Virus genome (UHGV): UHGV-0271890
DNA length: 12,698 nucleotides
Source: a virus
Reading direction: 5' to 3' (one strand)
Shown: piece after piece, positions 253 through 6,379 of the stretch
Position numbering within the stretch: position 1 is the stretch's first letter
How the letters are laid out: the number at the start of each line of letters is the position of its first letter
The notes under the pieces: model-generated
Told to the model about the DNA's origin: nothing
The model's input: the letters and a program-made list of their open reading frames with translations, nothing else
Databases searched by the model: none
Position numbers and translations under genes: made by a program

Positions 253-328
253 TGGTACTGGTAGGTGGAATCGAACCACCGATGTTCCCTTATCAGGGGA
301 GTGTTATAACCTTCTTAACTATACCAGC
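253..328 (-). tRNA. tRNA-Ile (anticodon GAU)
   Basis: Minus-strand cloverleaf folded by hand: acceptor GCTGGTA/TACCAGT (G1:U72 wobble), D-stem GTTA/TAAC, anticodon loop CTGATAA, T-arm GGTGG-TTCGATT-CCACC, discriminator A, CCA encoded (plus TGG 253-255). Confidence 0.85.
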
Positions 329-329
329 T

Positions 330-406
330 TGGAGGTTCAGATGGGAATCGAACCAACATTCATAGGGTTTATGAGACCCTTGCATTACCTTATCTGCGAC
401 TGAACC
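330..406 (-). tRNA. tRNA-Met (anticodon CAU; elongator vs initiator vs Ile2-lysidine not resolvable)
   Basis: Acceptor GGTTCAG/CTGAACC perfect; anticodon stem AGGGT/ACCCT with loop CTCATAA; T-loop TTCGATT with one internal T-stem mismatch; discriminator U; CCA encoded. Confidence 0.8.
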
Positions 407-411
407 ATTTT

Positions 412-487
412 TGGTAGAAGTGGAGGGATTCGAACCCATCGCCTGTCAGATTAAAAGTCTGCCGCATCACCATTCTGCTACACTTCC
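412..487 (-). tRNA. tRNA-Lys (anticodon UUU), non-canonical T-stem
   Basis: Acceptor GGAAGTG/CACTTCT (G1:U72), D-loop AATGGTGA, anticodon loop CTTTTAA on stem GCAGA/TCTGA, T-loop TTCGAAT flanked by only 3 GC pairs (ATGGG/CCCTC has two mismatches); CCA encoded. Confidence 0.65.
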
Positions 488-491
488 ATTA

Positions 492-635
492 AATTATCTT
501 TGTAGATAAGCTACCCAGACTTGCTTAAGGTCTGTAGCGATGTGCCTTTTTGGGTTTAAATCTAGAATTTACCCTTTCACCCTTTGTGGTCGCATACTCA
601 CAGGTAAGCTTAATAACTTATCTACAAAGATAATT
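492..635. repeat. 19-bp perfect inverted repeat enclosing 106 bp
   Basis: AATTATCTTTGTAGATAAG at 492-510 is the exact reverse complement of CTTATCTACAAAGATAATT at 617-635; each arm is also a local hairpin (TTATCT-NNNN-AGATAA). Confidence 0.8.
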
Positions 636-636
636 A

Positions 637-770
637 CCAGACCGTTGTTTATCATCTTAAGTGCTACCATTACACCAACTCGACATCTGCCGAGTGAAGG
701 AATCGAACCTTCGCCTTTTCTTTACCGAGAAATAGATTGTTTAAGTTTTGCTGTAAACGGTCTTCTGTAA
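637..770 (-). ncRNA. Candidate Y-RNA-like / permuted tRNA-mimic RNA
   Basis: Minus-strand order is T-arm GAAGG-TTCGATT-CCTTC (plus 696-712), then a closed 7-bp acceptor-like hairpin ACTCGGC-AGAT-GTCGAGT (plus 678-695), then a D-arm-like GTGT-AATGGTA-GCAC (plus 661-675). All sit inside an 8-bp long-range stem (plus 639-646 with 756-763). No canonical cloverleaf is possible. Confidence 0.45.
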
Positions 771-780
771 ATTTGTTGAG

Positions 781-856
781 CCAGACCAAGTTTTAAATTT
801 TTCAAAATTAAATTGGTTTGAAATTTTAAGTATCTTGCTGTATTTGGTCTTCTGCT
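781..856 (-). ncRNA. Stem-bounded structured element, family member
   Basis: Conserved CCAGACC...GGTCTTCTG flanks with 7-bp closing stem AGACCAA/TTGGTCT (783-789 with 844-850); conserved sense-strand 5' motif CAGAAGACC-NNNT-ACAGCAA; internal AT-rich hairpin. Confidence 0.4.
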
Positions 857-915
857 CCTTTAAAGGATACTCGTAAGAACCCTTTAAGGGAGGGGCTAAA
901 TAGCCCTCTCAAAAT

Positions 916-993
916 TGGCGGTTACGAAGGGATTTGAACCCTCATCATCTCCCGTGACAGGGGAGTATTTTAACCAAATTAAACTACATAACC
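916..993 (-). tRNA. tRNA-Asp (anticodon GUC)
   Basis: Acceptor GGTTATG/CGTAACC, D-stem GTTT/AAAT, anticodon stem CTCCC/GGGAG with loop CTGTCAC, T-arm GAGGG-TTCAAAT-CCCTT, discriminator G, CCA encoded. Confidence 0.88.
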
Positions 994-998
994 TTTAT

Positions 999-1086
999 TG
1001 GTGTGCCGTGTAGGAGTCGAACCTACCGAGTCTCAATGACAAGGGATTTACAGTCCCCACCGCTACCATCTACGGGATAACGACAC
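999..1086 (-). tRNA. tRNA-Tyr (anticodon GUA), class II with long variable arm
   Basis: Acceptor GTGTCGT/ACGGCAC (one U:G), anticodon stem GGGGA/TCCCT with loop CTGTAAA, ~15-nt variable arm with GTC/GAC stem, T-arm GTAGG-TTCGACT-CCTAC, CCA encoded; 5' end and D-arm register uncertain. Confidence 0.75.
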
Positions 1087-1095
1087 ATTTAAATT

Positions 1096-1172
1096 TGGCG
1101 GTTAGTCAGGGATTCGAACCCTGTGCCATTCGCTTAACAGGCGACCGCACATACCTTATGTGCTTCCTAACC
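1096..1172 (-). tRNA. tRNA-Asn (anticodon GUU)
   Basis: D-arm GCAC-ATAAGGTAT-GTGC perfect, anticodon loop CTGTTAA, T-arm CAGGG-TTCGAAT-CCCTG, acceptor GGTTAGG/ACTAACC with 7:66 G:A mismatch, discriminator G, CCA encoded. Confidence 0.78.
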
Positions 1173-1183
1173 TTAATACATTG

Positions 1184-1250
1184 CCAGACCGTGTTTTTTT
1201 TTTTTCTTTTATCCGCAAAAAGTATTTTGTTGCTGAATACGGTCTTCTGC
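1184..1250 (-). ncRNA. Stem-bounded structured element, family member
   Basis: Closing stem AGACCGT/ACGGTCT (1186-1192 with 1239-1245) covaries with the other copies; contains a 13-nt homopolymer T-run (plus) and an internal hairpin. Confidence 0.4.
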
Positions 1251-1255
1251 AAATT

Positions 1256-1332
1256 TGGAGGCGGGTGCAGGAGTCGAACCTGCCGATACCATGCTAATGA
1301 GACATGTGAGACGCCCTTTCTCTATACCCGCA
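1256..1332 (-). tRNA. tRNA with CAU anticodon (second Met-type; possibly Ile2/lysidine or initiator)
   Basis: T-arm GCAGG-TTCGACT-CCTGC, acceptor 3' strand ACCCGCC pairing TGCGGGT (1:72 mismatch), anticodon stem CATGT/GCATG with loop CTCATTA (U37 unusual), CCA encoded; 5' boundary uncertain. Confidence 0.6.
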
Positions 1333-1343
1333 ATTCTTAATGA

Positions 1344-1417
1344 CCAGACCAAATCTCTTCTTTGTCCGATTTACCTTCAGATGAATAAGATTAAGTTTGC
1401 TGTAATTGGTCTTCTGT
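1344..1417 (-). ncRNA. Stem-bounded structured element, family member
   Basis: Closing stem AGACCAA/TTGGTCT (1346-1352 with 1406-1412); same conserved flanks; abuts the CCA end of tRNA-Glu. Confidence 0.4.
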
Positions 1418-1423
1418 CAAAAC

Positions 1424-1501
1424 TGGCGTTCCAGAAGGGATTTGAACCCTCAGATATCCACTTTGAAAGAGTGGTGACTTTACCATTTTGTCTACTGGAA
1501 C
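1424..1501 (-). tRNA. tRNA-Glu (anticodon UUC)
   Basis: Acceptor GTTCCAG/CTGGAAC perfect, anticodon stem CCACT/AGTGG perfect with loop CTTTCAA, T-arm GAGGG-TTCAAAT-CCCTT, discriminator G, CCA encoded. Confidence 0.88.
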
Positions 1502-1508
1502 ATTAATT

Positions 1509-1585
1509 TGGTCTCTGTTGGAGGACTTGAACCTCCGGCCTTACCGCCCCAAACGGAACGCTCTACCAAGCTGAGCTAAACAGAG
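1509..1585 (-). tRNA. tRNA-Pro (anticodon UGG)
   Basis: Acceptor CTCTGTT/AACAGAG perfect (C1:G72), D-arm GCTC-AGCTTGGTA-GAGC, anticodon loop TTTGGGG, T-arm GGAGG-TTCAAGT-CCTCC, CCA encoded. Confidence 0.85.
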
Positions 1586-1611: not shown

Positions 1612-1641
1612 ACTTTAACATTATTTTTTAGTGATTGTCAA
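1612..1641 (-). promoter_or_regulatory. Candidate promoter for the tRNA array
   Basis: On the minus strand: TTGACA (plus 1636-1641), 18-nt spacer, TAAAGT (plus 1612-1617), about 25 nt upstream of the tRNA-Pro 5' end. Confidence 0.45.
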
Positions 1642-1710
1642 GAACTTTTTTAAAATATTTTTCAGTATCTTAGAAAAGCTCTCGTTTCGTTTCTATGTAG
1701 AACATATTAA

Positions 1711-1745
1711 AGGGTATCAAACACATTGTCAATACCCTTTTTGAA
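1711..1745. terminator. Hairpin terminator just downstream of the vWA gene stop
   Basis: AAGGGTAT...ATACCCTT 8-bp stem, followed on the plus strand by TTTTTGAAACTTTTT and preceded by an A-run on the minus strand; direction ambiguous, possibly bidirectional. Confidence 0.45.
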
Positions 1746-1750
1746 ACTTT

Positions 1751-3166
1751 TTACCAGATGTAACGGTCAATCATTACTGCTTTGAGCATTACGCTGATTG
1801 GGTCAAACTTCTCACCACCAAGCAGAGCTTTTAAAGTGGCTGGAGAGAAACCAGATACCATTGCTACACCGTTATCCTTAACAGATACTTCGCAAGTACC
1901 ACTACGGTTTGCTAAGTACCAGAATACCAGTTGTGGCATTTCGTATCCAGCTTTTTTGTACTTACTACGAATTGCTTCAAAGTTTGTACGACCGTTAGCT
2001 CCATCAACCTGATTGAACTCCATATCGGAGAAGATGATAAGCTTACTTGGCATATCTTTCTGAGTCAAGTTGTTTCTTTTACCTGTCTCAAGAATACGGT
2101 CAAAAGCAGCTTGTAAGTTAGTTGAGCCATATTCAACGTGTCGCATCACCTGACGATGACGGTTTCGTAAATCACCACTCAGTTCGATGAAGTGAGGGTT
2201 TGTTGAATAAACCATCAACTCATTCTTAAAGCAACCTGTATTACGTTCTGCTACATACAATGCAAGTGAAACACCAATATCAAGAGCAGTAATTGAACCA
2301 AAATTCACCCAAGACATTGAGCTTGAAACATCAGACATACACAAGATGTTTTCACCCTCTGCCATCCAGTTTGGTAGTGCTTTCCACTGCTCATTAGCAA
2401 CATCTGCATTACCATGCTTAACAGATTTAATTACATCGTATGGGTAAACAGCACCAGCATTAATCTTAGTCTCACCCTTTGATAAGGACTCGATGTAAGC
2501 TTTGTAGCGTTCTCCATCTTTACGGTTAAACAGTTTTTGGTAACGTGCAGCAGCAAGTGAAGGAATCTTACTGTAGTCAATCTTACCAAACTCATTAGCA
2601 GAGATTTTTTGCTCAACTGTATCAGATAGTGCAGACAACAGTGTGCGGTACTCTTTCTCACTCAAGTTGGCAAACTTGCAGAAACGTTTTACAAACTGCT
2701 TATGACGTGGTTTGACTCGTGGTAACCACTTAGCTGCCAAACCTGCTGTTGCAGGGTCTAGTAATGCTGCTTCTAAATGTTTGAAGGCATCTGTCTCGAA
2801 ACGAGTACCTACGAAGATTTTGAAGTCATCAAAACGACCAAGTTCTGCAATCTTATCCATAATGCGAAGAACCTGTGTAGGCTCTAAAACTTTATCTTCA
2901 ATTGCTTGAAGCAAAACAGTTCTGAAGGCTTTACGCTCACCCATACCTTCTCGTACATCTCGCATGTGAAGCAAAATACGAACTGCAACATCAACATCCT
3001 CACGCAAAGCTTTGTAGAACAGGTCTGGTAAGATTTCTACATTGCTACGGCTCGAACCAGCAGATTTGTAAAAGTCTACAAGAGCAGACATTGATGAAGT
3101 ATGGTTTACAGCACCATTTTCAGTTCGACCTGCATGAAGGTGCGCATGTTTAAATAATTCGCTCAT
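1751..3166 (-). CDS. vWA (MIDAS) domain protein, 471 aa; possibly Ro60/TROVE-like or DUF2828-like
   Basis: Long ORF with RBS; MIDAS motif D-x-S-x-S (ILCMSDVSSSMS, ~nt 2300-2340) followed by predicted alpha/beta segments; N-terminal ~270 aa likely helical. Family assignment is from memory. Confidence 0.8.
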   Translation of the reverse strand: MSELFKHAHLHAGRTENGAVNHTSSMSALVDFYKSAGSSRSNVEILPDLFYKALREDVDVAVRILLHMRDVREGMGERKAFRTVLLQAIEDKVLEPTQVLRIMDKIAELGRFDDFKIFVGTRFETDAFKHLEAALLDPATAGLAAKWLPRVKPRHKQFVKRFCKFANLSEKEYRTLLSALSDTVEQKISANEFGKIDYSKIPSLAAARYQKLFNRKDGERYKAYIESLSKGETKINAGAVYPYDVIKSVKHGNADVANEQWKALPNWMAEGENILCMSDVSSSMSWVNFGSITALDIGVSLALYVAERNTGCFKNELMVYSTNPHFIELSGDLRNRHRQVMRHVEYGSTNLQAAFDRILETGKRNNLTQKDMPSKLIIFSDMEFNQVDGANGRTNFEAIRSKYKKAGYEMPQLVFWYLANRSGTCEVSVKDNGVAMVSGFSPATLKALLGGEKFDPISVMLKAVMIDRYIW

Positions 3167-3200: not shown

Positions 3201-3236
3201 TGACAGACTTTAGAGCAACTTTGTAGAGTCTGTCAA
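3201..3236. promoter_or_regulatory. 9-bp perfect inverted repeat between the two minus-strand genes
   Basis: TGACAGACT ... AGTCTGTCA separated by 18 bp; candidate operator or attenuator hairpin. Confidence 0.35.
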
Positions 3237-3248
3237 CACCTTTTAAAA

Positions 3249-3620
3249 TTATTTTTTGAGAGTCGCTACAGCAGAGAACGTTGGTTTGTTATCTGTCTGA
3301 GATTGACCACCACTATCAGGGGTCTTCTTAGTGTCTGCTGCAAGTGCTTTCATCTCACCTGCTGAGTGAGTAAAGATAGTTTTACCGACCTCAATCATAC
3401 TCTTGATGGTTACGTCATCTGTGTTTAACCCGAACTCTGCAAGCTTAGCCGCGTCCCTTGTAACAATCGCCTCAAACAACTTTGCAGCAAACTCAGCAGA
3501 ATTATCAATGGTCAGTTGAGCTTTTACAAGTGAGCTTTTGTTACGAGAGCCTTTTGGTCTTCCAGATGGGTTTCCAGACTGGCCTTTTTTAAACTGGCCT
3601 TTGTTTGTTCTGTTTTTCAT
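3249..3620 (-). CDS. GNPxGRPKG-motif basic protein, 123 aa (DUF5681-like, probable nucleic-acid binding)
   Basis: ORF with RBS AAGAGG 7 nt upstream of ATG; N-terminal KKGQSGNPSGRPKGSRNK motif recalled from phage proteins; upstream of and co-oriented with the vWA gene. Confidence 0.75.
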   Translation of the reverse strand: MKNRTNKGQFKKGQSGNPSGRPKGSRNKSSLVKAQLTIDNSAEFAAKLFEAIVTRDAAKLAEFGLNTDDVTIKSMIEVGKTIFTHSAGEMKALAADTKKTPDSGGQSQTDNKPTFSAVATLKK

Positions 3621-5249: not shown

Positions 5250-6379
5250 TTAAAGCAAAGACTTACCCAGACTTCAAAGAGTTTGTGAAGGGCTTCGTTG
5301 CAAATGTAAAGGCTGGTAAGAGATATGATTTTAGAACATATCAGGAGGCTATTTTACCGCTTACCTATAGTTCGTATTGGCCTGAAGCTGATATTGCAGA
5401 AGTTGAGAAGTTTGACTACAAACCAGACTACAAAGTTCCATTTAGTGATGAGTTGCTTTACAGCGTTGGTGCTCAAATGAGAACTTCTGACTTCTTCATG
5501 GATTTGCAGTATGCAATCATCAATGGTAAAGATGTTGACACAATTTACTGTGAATGGTTGGCAAGAGTTAAGCCGTTCTCAATGTTGAATGCTAAGTTGA
5601 AGGATGCTATTAAGCCACCAGCAATTACTCAGCAACCAACAGGTCAAACAGTCAATGAGGGTGGCACACTTACTCTAAGCATTCTAGCAACTAACGCCAC
5701 TGGATATCAGTGGAAGAAGGATGGTGAGGACATCCCTAGTGCCAATTCTGCAACTTACACAAAACAGTCAGTAGCACCTTCTGACGCTGGTTCATACACT
5801 TGTGTTGTATCTGGAGAGGGTGGAACAAGTGTTACCTCAGATACAGCAACAGTGACTGTGAACGCACTGCCTGTGATTACACAACAACCTTCTAGCCAGA
5901 CCATCAATGAGGGTGGAAACATCAACTTGGAAGTGACTGCAACTGGTGCAACTGGTTACCAATGGAAGAAAGATGGCTCTGACATTCCTTCAGCGACAAA
6001 TGCTGCCTATAGCAAGTCTGGTGCGCTGCCAGCAGATGCAGGTTCATACACTTGCGTTGTAACAGGTGCAGGTGGTTCTGTTACTTCTAGTCCTGCAACA
6101 GTTACTGTGAATGCACTTCCAGTAATCACTCAACAGCCAACCAATCAAGAAATCACTGAAGGTGAGACATTAACACTTAACGTTGTAGCAACAGGTGCAA
6201 CAGGTTATCAGTGGAAGAAGGGTGAGGAAGTCATCCCAGACGCAACTGCTGCAACTTACATCAAAGAAGGTGCAACCGCTGCTGATGCAGGAAGCTACAC
6301 CTGTGTAGTGACTGGTGCAGGTGGCTCTGTAACATCTAATGCAGCAACAGTTACAGTTAACCCAGCAGGGGAGGCGTAA
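5246..6379 (+). CDS. Protein with N-terminal paralogous domain and three tandem Ig-like domains, 377 aa
   Basis: ATGA start/stop overlap; three ~82-85-aa repeats, each with ITQQP...EG...ATGYQWKK...DAGSYTCVV...VTVN (I-set-like Ig signature). Confidence 0.85.
   Translation: MIKAKTYPDFKEFVKGFVANVKAGKRYDFRTYQEAILPLTYSSYWPEADIAEVEKFDYKPDYKVPFSDELLYSVGAQMRTSDFFMDLQYAIINGKDVDTIYCEWLARVKPFSMLNAKLKDAIKPPAITQQPTGQTVNEGGTLTLSILATNATGYQWKKDGEDIPSANSATYTKQSVAPSDAGSYTCVVSGEGGTSVTSDTATVTVNALPVITQQPSSQTINEGGNINLEVTATGATGYQWKKDGSDIPSATNAAYSKSGALPADAGSYTCVVTGAGGSVTSSPATVTVNALPVITQQPTNQEITEGETLTLNVVATGATGYQWKKGEEVIPDATAATYIKEGATAADAGSYTCVVTGAGGSVTSNAATVTVNPAGEA
5615..6370 (+). repeat. Three tandem ~250-bp in-frame repeats encoding Ig-like domains
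   Basis: Protein-level repeats are strongly conserved while the DNA has diverged at synonymous positions. Confidence 0.8.

Follow-up and report, generated by a model that had tools for sequence, protein, structure and literature searches.

UHGV-0271890 is a virus genome of which a stretch of 12,698 nucleotides (the window below) was analysed; it comes from a Felixounavirus (Felix O1-like phage) and shares 97.8% identity with LF110P2 and about 96% with both Salmonella phage Mushroom and the E. coli phage JohannRWettstein (Bas63). On its minus strand the window encodes a 471-residue protein of the DUF2828/DUF7788 family with a predicted Ro60-like fold. Downstream of this gene, an array of nine tRNAs houses structured RNA elements built on a short closing helix and an adjoining single-stranded motif. 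RNAs of this class accompany DUF2828 genes in diverse phages, and those in the window are probable ligands of the encoded protein. The earlier note, made from the sequence alone, had placed the gene immediately upstream of, and co-oriented with, a cluster of tRNAs and structured RNAs. This arrangement is borne out: all nine tRNAs lie on the strand of the gene with structured non-tRNA elements between them, and the first begins 165 nt past the stop codon.

The principal features are listed below; R1 and R2 are two covariance models of the elements, used with cut-offs of E<=1 and E<=0.1, respectively.

1751..3166, minus strand: gene for the Ro60-like protein (DUF2828+DUF7788), 471 aa, orthologue of Bas63 gp130; ATG at 3166, TAA at 1751-1753
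2372..3166, minus strand: N-terminal all-helical half, residues 1 to ~265, predicted to be ring-forming by fold (AlphaFold2 model)
1754..2353, minus strand: C-terminal vWA domain, residues ~272-471, Pfam DUF7788 (Pfam, AlphaFold2 model)
2318..2332, minus strand: MIDAS (metal-ion-dependent adhesion site) motif DVSSS, residues D279-S283, completed by T349 and D381 (translation, homologue alignment)
253..1585, minus strand: nine tRNAs in an array (Pro, Glu, Met, Asn, Tyr, Asp, Lys, Met, Ile), with the RNA elements among them (ARAGORN and Rfam)
1340..1418, minus strand: element 1, short form, filling the tRNA-Glu/tRNA-Met spacer exactly (motif, fold; R2 45.7 bits, E=2.6e-7; Rfam Class I RNA 19.7 bits, full-length)
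1180..1251, minus strand: element 2, short form, filling the tRNA-Met/tRNA-Asn spacer exactly (motif, fold; R2 48.9 bits, E=4.3e-8; Rfam Class I RNA 28.0 bits, full-length)
777..856, minus strand: element 3, short form (motif, fold; R2 40.3 bits, E=5.1e-6)
633..769, minus strand: element 4, long form, consisting of closing helix, UUACAGCAA, variable hairpin, T-arm, closed 7-bp acceptor-like hairpin and D-arm (unconstrained fold; R1 104 bits, E=1.2e-17; covariation in alignment A3)
488..636, minus strand: element 5, tentative member, whose terminal stem measures 24 bp and whose internal hairpin has CUUAAGCAA as its loop (z=-7.2)

A Ro60-like protein outside the TROVE family

The open reading frame (ORF) at 1751-3166 is no chance ORF, since it matches PHROG 850 ('RNA-binding protein') over its full length (3.8e-183) and 2551 database proteins match its product at E<=0.001. 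Its coordinates and DVSSS motif had been given correctly in the earlier note, and the gene lies on the minus strand. The MIDAS set D279, S281, S283, T349 and D381 is invariant across 33 homologues that share 40-89% identity with the query (residue numbers are one lower in alignment A1 and in the structure model, both of which begin at codon 2).

By Pfam, the protein matches DUF2828 (PF11443) with 103.9 bits (1.2e-29, cut-off 29) and DUF7788 (PF25043) with 147.8 bits (3.6e-43, cut-off 27.1), and all 33 homologues match both families. Neither the ORF nor any of the homologues matches TROVE (PF05731) at E<=1, while the positive control, the canonical phage Ro60 gp223 of Rizal, scores 170.5 bits against TROVE and strongly against vWA_Ro60 (PF25045) as well. 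The latter family is matched weakly by 5 of the 33 homologues (best 9e-4) and not by the window ORF. Searches of the PDB by sequence and profile, with the ORF and with alignment A1, returned nothing relevant. An hhalign comparison with a three-sequence TROVE/Ro60 profile, made of human Ro60 and two phage Ro60s, gives 75% probability (E=2.6e-5) over 203 columns that cover the last ring helix and the vWA domain; the human sequence used agrees with PDB 9nen_A at 537 of 538 residues. Against one Ro60 sequence alone the probability is 31%, over the vWA half.

The AlphaFold2 model built from the 33 homologues (predicted local distance difference test 87.2, predicted template modelling score 0.88) has helices to residue ~263 and an alpha/beta vWA fold from ~273, in keeping with the helical N-terminal region of about 270 residues and C-terminal vWA domain proposed in the earlier note. 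In a Foldseek search of the PDB with this model, the best nine matches are all Ro60/Rsr/TROVE structures, aligned over the full length with E values of 6.5e-8 to 5.5e-6. The protein is thus predicted to be Ro60-like by fold, a helical ring closed by a vWA/MIDAS domain. By its sequence it falls in the DUF2828/DUF7788 family, a lineage apparently separate from the canonical TROVE Ro60 proteins, and it is no TROVE member. The note's proposal of a Ro60/TROVE or DUF2828 protein therefore stands for DUF2828 and for the Ro60 fold, and fails for TROVE. Close structural homologues are found by BFVD in giant viruses of protists, namely Pithovirus LCPAC304 (TM 0.87), CroV, Marseillevirus, a choanoflagellate mimivirid (Mimiviridae ChoanoV1) and Bodo saltans virus.

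Structured RNA elements in the tRNA array

The sequence AGAAGACCNNNTNCAGCAA occurs in four copies on the strand of the Ro60-like gene, against 0.04 expected by chance, and each copy has GGTCTGG on its 3′ side. In all four the fold comprises a 7-8-bp helix and, beyond an AGA/G internal loop, an outer helix of 4 bp; the inner and outer pairs covary both between the copies and between related phages. Their shared module is a 7-bp closing helix (5′-AG...CU-3′) followed by single-stranded UUWCAGCAA, with an unpaired G past the 3′ strand. In element 4, the order of the arms is the permuted one typical of YrlA. The A-tract of element 2 (1190-1215, minus strand), which precedes the 3′ helix strand, has 12 A in the window and 6 in two close relatives (L006 and L004), a homopolymer length polymorphism in the variable region.

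Element 5 is matched by neither R1 nor R2. It is 96-100% conserved within Felixounaviruses, which makes covariation uninformative there, and the only informative comparison is with Mooglevirus Sf19 (L084:6586-6736), where a diverged structural equivalent with compensatory changes is found (z=-6.0). It may be a fifth ligand with a minimal AGCAA module.

None of the elements reaches an Rfam gathering threshold, and Y_RNA and YrlA have no match at E<=1 in the window. Similarity searches with the DNA reached only Felixounaviruses and unrelated tRNAs, and the strict motif (NNNN-AGA-AGACC...GGTCT-G-NNNN) was not found beyond the Ounavirinae. Since this motif is confined to the subfamily, the wider search was made structure-first, by looking for T-arms outside tRNAs.

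An RNA class that accompanies DUF2828 genes

We surveyed 83 DUF2828 loci of diverse phages, each set in the orientation of the gene. Without exception, the tRNAs within ~4 kb run in the same direction as the DUF2828 gene, and all 54 T-arm hairpins found outside ARAGORN tRNAs lie on its strand. Many of these hairpins show the layout of element 4 with different helix sequences. In alignment A3, which holds 16 long-form sequences, the T-arm and closing helix were selection criteria and the acceptor-like and D helices were not; the four helices are paired in 90.5% of cells, against 37-49% when slid, with a covariation score of 0.84 against 0.19 or less. Its invariant columns in the linker and D-arm region map by hand to tRNA positions U8, G10, A14, G18/19 and A21.

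R1 returns 119 matches, all on the strand of the gene, of which 102 have no tRNA overlap and are spread over 55 loci; the 90 matches of R2 are likewise all on that strand. Combined, the two models define 126 elements in 60 of the 83 loci, none of them within the gene and the nearest lying a median of 56 nt away. Of the 51 tRNA-free loci, 29 have elements, with a median distance to the gene of 53 nt, and for many short forms the start or stop codon of the gene is 9-60 nt away. A set of 85 non-redundant modules includes 66 different helix sequences; their helix is paired in 89% of cells, which falls to 29-43% on shifting. The motif positions C, G, C, A and A are each kept in 81-86 of 86 modules, and 81 of 85 have the unpaired G that follows the helix. 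When 37 short forms were aligned by MAFFT, with no fitting to a model, 99.2% of cells were paired (30-45% when slid) and compensatory changes were present at 7 of 7 pairs.

Two further results bear on specificity. In 59 kb of control sequence (the tRNA regions of a T5-like phage and of rV5, and two canonical TROVE loci) there is no R2 match and no full-length R1 module outside tRNAs. In Listeria phage LMTA-34, whose protein is 29% identical and which lay outside model building, three tandem elements are found 69-343 nt upstream of the gene, with E values of 1e-9 to 1e-4. The RNA class thus accompanies the DUF2828 gene. It appears to be undescribed and to be a variant of the Ro60/Y-RNA theme.

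Three phage loci deserve separate mention. In Mycobacterium phage Faith1 (L082:5442-5707), an unannotated 370-nt gap after the gene for a 'Ro-like RNA binding protein' contains three tandem elements, short, long (tRNA-like) and short. A metagenomic phage (L047:6619-7092) carries a phage transfer-messenger RNA (70.9 bits) about 1.2 kb downstream of its DUF2828 gene, right after which a short-form element is found (5431-5519). In the RefSeq record of Salmonella phage Mushroom (NC_041923, L001), the tRNAs are placed on the strand opposite to that given by ARAGORN and Rfam; all 24 are actually co-oriented with the Ro60-like gene.

Comparison with Ro60 and Y RNAs

The system shares its general plan with Ro60/Rsr and its Y RNAs (YrlA/YrlB, and the Ro60 of phage phiLo with Yrl1/Yrl2), in that a ring plus vWA/MIDAS fold is encoded next to RNA genes on the same strand. 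As with YrlA and YrlB, a tRNA-like long form occurs beside short forms, and the order of closing helix, conserved motif, variable region, T-arm, closed acceptor-like stem and D-arm is that of Ro60 Y RNAs. The YrlA topology (T-arm, closed acceptor-like stem and D-arm, permuted in order and enclosed by a terminal helix) is present in the long form with four covarying helices, and UUWCAGCAA sits where YrlA holds the Ro60-binding GNCGAA motif. The canonical YrlA of Rizal has the same layout, with GCCGAG (GNCGAA type) in the place of UUWCAGCAA in the DUF2828-associated RNAs.

Rfam YrlA (RF02553, gathering score 69) aligns over its full length to two DUF2828-associated long forms in locus L076, with 38.9 and 28.7 bits, and has no match at E<=1 to element 4 or the Faith1 RNA. 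It matches the Rizal RNA at 36 bits, below threshold, while the covariance model of this study matches Rizal YrlA only through the core.

The two systems differ in protein family, canonical Ro60 combining TROVE with vWA_Ro60 and the present protein DUF2828 with DUF7788. They also differ in range. With human Ro60 as the query, 358 phage records are retrieved at 33-40% identity, nearly all from actinophages (cluster-C mycobacteriophages and Streptomyces phages). With the window protein there are 710, the majority from phages that infect enterobacteria, Vibrio, Listeria, Staphylococcus and Campylobacter, the hosts including Escherichia, Salmonella, Enterococcus and Bacillus; relatives also occur in other mycobacteriophages, such as Faith1. 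YrlA RNAs were described in the actinophage Ro60 group by Chen et al. 2014, who searched only TROVE-annotated genomes. The Ro60 of phage phiLo binds its adjacent Y-like RNAs (Yrl1/Yrl2) and host PNPase. RNA binding and PNPase recruitment have been demonstrated for the canonical system and are hypothetical for the present one.

Comparison with Dictyostelium Class I RNA

Class I RNAs are abundant and have been functionally unexplained since 2004. Leaving tRNAs aside, Dictyostelium Class I RNA (RF01414) is, unexpectedly, the one Rfam family with alignments to the elements. End-to-end alignments are obtained for element 2 (28.0 bits), element 1 (19.7 bits), an element of locus L044 (26.9 bits) and two Listeria phage elements (23.1 and 19.6 bits); none of these five matches, from three lineages, reaches the gathering score of 41.5 bits.

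The RF01414 consensus reads GaUcuC-CUUACAGCAA-(A/U-rich)-GagAuC-UG. According to Kjellin et al. 2021 (PMC7919456), what defines Class I RNAs is a stem of 6 bp whose structure alone is conserved, an invariant 5′ G, AAG at the beginning and CUGU at the end, a variable interior and, adjoining the 5′ strand, an unstructured motif of ~11 nt. The phage consensus shows every defining feature on this list. In both groups a short terminal stem, conserved in structure and not in sequence, opens with an invariant G-C pair and encloses an A/U-rich interior, for a length of ~55-80 nt. In both, the unstructured motif (C)UUACAGCAA comes right after the 5′ stem strand, and the phage consensus UUACAGCAA agrees with the Class I motif at 9 of 9 positions. 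The phage modules begin with A (53/86), A (64/86) and G (80/86), the G being helix position 2. They end with C (78/85), U (65/85), G (81/85), any base and U (53/85), and all three Listeria phage elements end in CUGU.

The genomic settings differ, Class I RNAs being eukaryotic multicopy genes with their own Dictyostelium upstream sequence element (DUSE) promoter ~60 nt upstream, and the phage elements lying inside a bacterial-type tRNA operon. Class I RNAs have no known link to a DUF2828 protein, and none were found outside Dictyostelia by Kjellin et al. 2021 (PMC7919456). Proteins pulled down with DdR-21, one of the Class I RNAs, include DDB_G0281243, a protein of unknown function. We tentatively raise the possibility, itself rather doubtful, that the phage short RNAs and the dictyostelid Class I RNAs form one class. 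Class I RNAs would then be Y-RNA-type ligands of a DUF2828-family Ro60-like protein, for which DDB_G0281243 would be the candidate, and the pair would circulate among phages, protist giant viruses and eukaryotes. The match turns the question of what Class I RNAs do and bind into a database check followed by a pull-down.

Bas63 gp130 and the Ppl defence

The product of the window ORF is identical to Bas63 gp130 (bas63_0130) at 461 of 471 residues (98%), and both genes lie between a DUF5681 gene and tRNA-Pro; by identity and synteny the window protein can be taken as the orthologue of this anti-Ppl protein. A 2024 preprint on PhageMaP described gp130 as having 'high structural similarity to Ro60' and as lying directly upstream of tRNAs (10.1101/2024.10.10.617714). 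The Ppl defence, a single ATPase+PHP gene, is countered by gp130, whose deletion leads to tiny plaques that complementation rescues (10.1101/2024.10.10.617714). Plaquing of T7 on Ppl hosts is restored by gp130 supplied from a plasmid or inserted into T7, and the primers for the insert span exactly start codon to stop codon (10.1101/2024.10.10.617714). The earlier note had suggested a module aimed at host tRNA-targeting defences; this finds no support, the tested function being to counter Ppl, for which the ORF alone is enough.

PhageMaP fitness values for the region are as follows (10.1101/2024.10.10.617714).

Gene 130 (DUF2828): -2.9 to -3.7 on Ppl; +0.8 to +0.9 on TerY-P
Gene 129 (DUF5681): -2.4 to -2.5 on Ppl; -1.8 to -2.2 on TerY-P
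Genes 137 and 138 (overlapping elements 3-5): +0.2 to +0.9 on Ppl; +0.2 to +0.6 on TerY-P

In two passages on laboratory strains, gene 130 scored +0.6 to +1.1 and gene 129 -0.9 to -3.5 (10.1101/2024.10.10.617714). Gene 130 therefore matters only on Ppl, while gene 129 is needed under all conditions tested.

The authors of the preprint surmised that 'some tRNA genes are possibly Y RNAs' (10.1101/2024.10.10.617714). The candidate RNAs proposed here are, in contrast, not the annotated tRNAs but unannotated spacers, and two of these spacers carry in Bas63 the opposite-strand ORFs 0137 and 0138. The small opposite-strand ORFs over elements 4 and 5 are a plus-strand ORF of 76 aa at 540-770 in the window and, in Bas63, bas63_0137 and bas63_0138 (L085 2021-2295), which are annotated as hypothetical proteins. 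They are probably spurious ORF calls over RNA genes, so that the annotation of such small 'hypothetical proteins' in tRNA arrays can be corrected.

Gene order and transcription signals

Read along the coding strand, the region runs from DUF5681 through the Ro60-like gene, the tRNA array and three small ORFs to the large terminase and then the portal. The remaining features of the region are these.

3249..3620, minus strand: ORF for a DUF5681 protein, 123 aa, carrying GNPSGRPKG, upstream of the Ro60-like gene (Pfam)
3207..3236, minus strand: sigma-70-like promoter match just upstream of the Ro60-like ORF (consensus scan, 10/12; total matches not above shuffled expectation)
1612..1740, minus strand: terminator-like hairpin (1709-1740) and two promoter-like sites (1704-1732 and 1612-1641) between the ORF and tRNA-Pro (consensus matches only)

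The hairpin and promoter-like sites at 1612-1740 suggest that the tRNA array may form a transcription unit distinct from the Ro60-like gene. The small GNPxGRPKG protein that the earlier note had joined to the gene is indeed encoded upstream on the same strand and belongs to DUF5681. As a specific partner of the Ro60-like protein it is unlikely, the Bas63 gene 129 being needed under all tested conditions and gene 130 only on Ppl. The gene order and the negative values of Bas63 gene 129 on every tested host raise the idea, as an idea only, that DUF5681 might be a small-terminase-like protein parted from the large terminase (TerL) by an inserted RNA module.

Interpretation and alternative explanations

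On balance, the locus probably comprises a phage Ro60-like protein (DUF2828/DUF7788, the Bas63 gp130 orthologue) together with its likely RNA ligands in the tRNA array. These would be the three short RNAs, the tRNA-like RNA and, possibly, the long-stem RNA as a fifth. The binding of protein to RNA, the processing of the RNAs and a role as a ribonucleoprotein (RNP) are what we infer. Because the elements fill tRNA spacers, they would be set free as separate RNAs by RNase P and the enzymes that process tRNA 3′ ends. On its outer surface the protein would bind the module of helix and UUWCAGCAA, much as Ro60 does with Y RNA. The variable or tRNA-like part of the RNA would control access to the cavity or else hold a host enzyme, such as PNPase or one that handles tRNAs, in the way the phiLo Ro60-Yrl particle does with PNPase. 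Such an RNP may have a role distinct from the inhibition of Ppl.

Of the two parts, the protein is already known (Bas63 gp130, 2024), and the RNA side appears to be new. For a phage protein whose anti-defence phenotype has been validated, the latter would provide concrete candidate RNA partners, complete with coordinates, motif and two covariance models. It would also define a second Ro60-like/Y-RNA-like system, commoner in sequenced phages than the canonical one by the record counts above. Among its carriers are phages employed for biocontrol and typing, such as Felix O1-like phages and the P100/A511-like phages of Listeria, as well as Staphylococcus, Campylobacter and Vibrio phages.

Several observations weigh against this interpretation. 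The helical half of the protein lacks detectable sequence similarity to TROVE, the Ro60-binding motif of Y RNAs (GNCGAA/CGAA, GGUCCGA) is replaced by UUWCAGCAA, 23 of the 83 loci have no detectable element, and the known direct binder of Dictyostelium Class I RNA is an RRM protein. The gp130 ORF alone rescues T7 on Ppl, so its one known activity is independent of phage RNAs and needs only the protein. Insertions in bas63_0137 and bas63_0138, two ORFs that overlap elements 4 and 5 as well as the margin of element 3, have a neutral outcome on Ppl and TerY-P; elements 1 and 2 are intact in these mutants and could therefore compensate. The ORF-only rescue and the neutral insertions would also suit a protein that inhibits Ppl by itself, for instance through binding of its MIDAS face or ring to Ppl or to the trigger of Ppl, while the RNAs do an unrelated job and merely share a niche near tRNAs. 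MIDAS sites of vWA domains usually mediate protein-protein contacts, which favours the same explanation. We nevertheless consider it unlikely, since the elements track the gene and not the tRNAs, being found at tRNA-free loci and missing from tRNA arrays without the gene, since the association is kept at protein identities down to 29%, and since a Ro60 fold with adjacent Y-type RNAs is a known pattern.

If the RNAs are instead parts of an mRNA or operon acting in cis (operators for autoregulation in untranslated regions (UTRs), stabilisers or processing signals) rather than free trans-acting RNAs, the many short forms at 9-60 nt from a start or stop codon could lie within the UTRs of the gene. 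In the window, however, the terminator-like hairpin, the promoter-like sites and two tRNAs stand between gene and elements, and each element fills a tRNA spacer. Tandem copies and a tRNA-like form better suit stable RNAs, and this improbable arrangement would still involve binding by the protein. That the elements are degenerate tRNA remnants or generic spacers of tRNA operons with no dedicated function might be thought from the T- and D-arms of element 4 and the location inside a tRNA array; it is made very improbable by the strong covariation, by the near-invariant CAGCAA in 85 non-redundant instances with 66 helix sequences, and by the occurrence of elements in tRNA-free loci and their absence from the T5-like and rV5 arrays. 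Finally, it is hardly credible that we are dealing with a generic vWA protein, structural or associated with the tail, whose helical domain is unrelated. Some records do say only 'vWFA protein', and CKA15_055, the homologue in Listeria phage CKA15, was detected in purified virions with 20 peptides and 57% coverage. A generic vWA protein with an unrelated N-terminal domain and no DUF2828 similarity, the outcome that the earlier note had named as counting against its proposal, is not what was found, as the protein matches DUF2828 and the fold search aligns it to Ro60 over its full length. The gene is also dispensable on laboratory hosts and lies outside the structural module.

The Listeria phage locus and RNA repair genes

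No RtcB, ligase or Pnkp gene, as anticipated near the locus by the earlier note, is annotated in the syntenic region of phage Mushroom, and the polynucleotide kinase of Bas63 is sited elsewhere in the genome and is neutral on Ppl (10.1101/2024.10.10.617714). In this respect the Mushroom region differs from the bacterial rsr-yrlBA-rtcBA RNA-repair operon. A resemblance to that operon is seen in Listeria phage LMTA-34. There the DUF2828 gene, with its three elements just before it, lies ~1.3 kb upstream of genes for a metal-dependent phosphohydrolase and for a 'tRNA splicing ligase' of RtcB type (L090:6075-8019).

Up to 67% of CKA15 phage transcripts are reported to come from a noncoding RNA (ncRNA) region. 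This region, CKA15 ~26,236-26,727, corresponds to L090:2428-2979 in LMTA-34 and matches ROOL RNA (RF03087) over its full length, with 88.5 bits (E=6e-18), just under the gathering score of 99.1 bits. The ROOL-like ncRNA lies ~1 kb upstream of the Listeria DUF2828 gene. The three Listeria elements were considered as the most abundant CKA15 ncRNA and rejected, that region being ROOL RNA situated ~0.7-1.2 kb further upstream. Two other abundant regions of CKA15 are described with no coordinates. The presence of CKA15_055 in virions is unexpected for an RNA-binding accessory protein.

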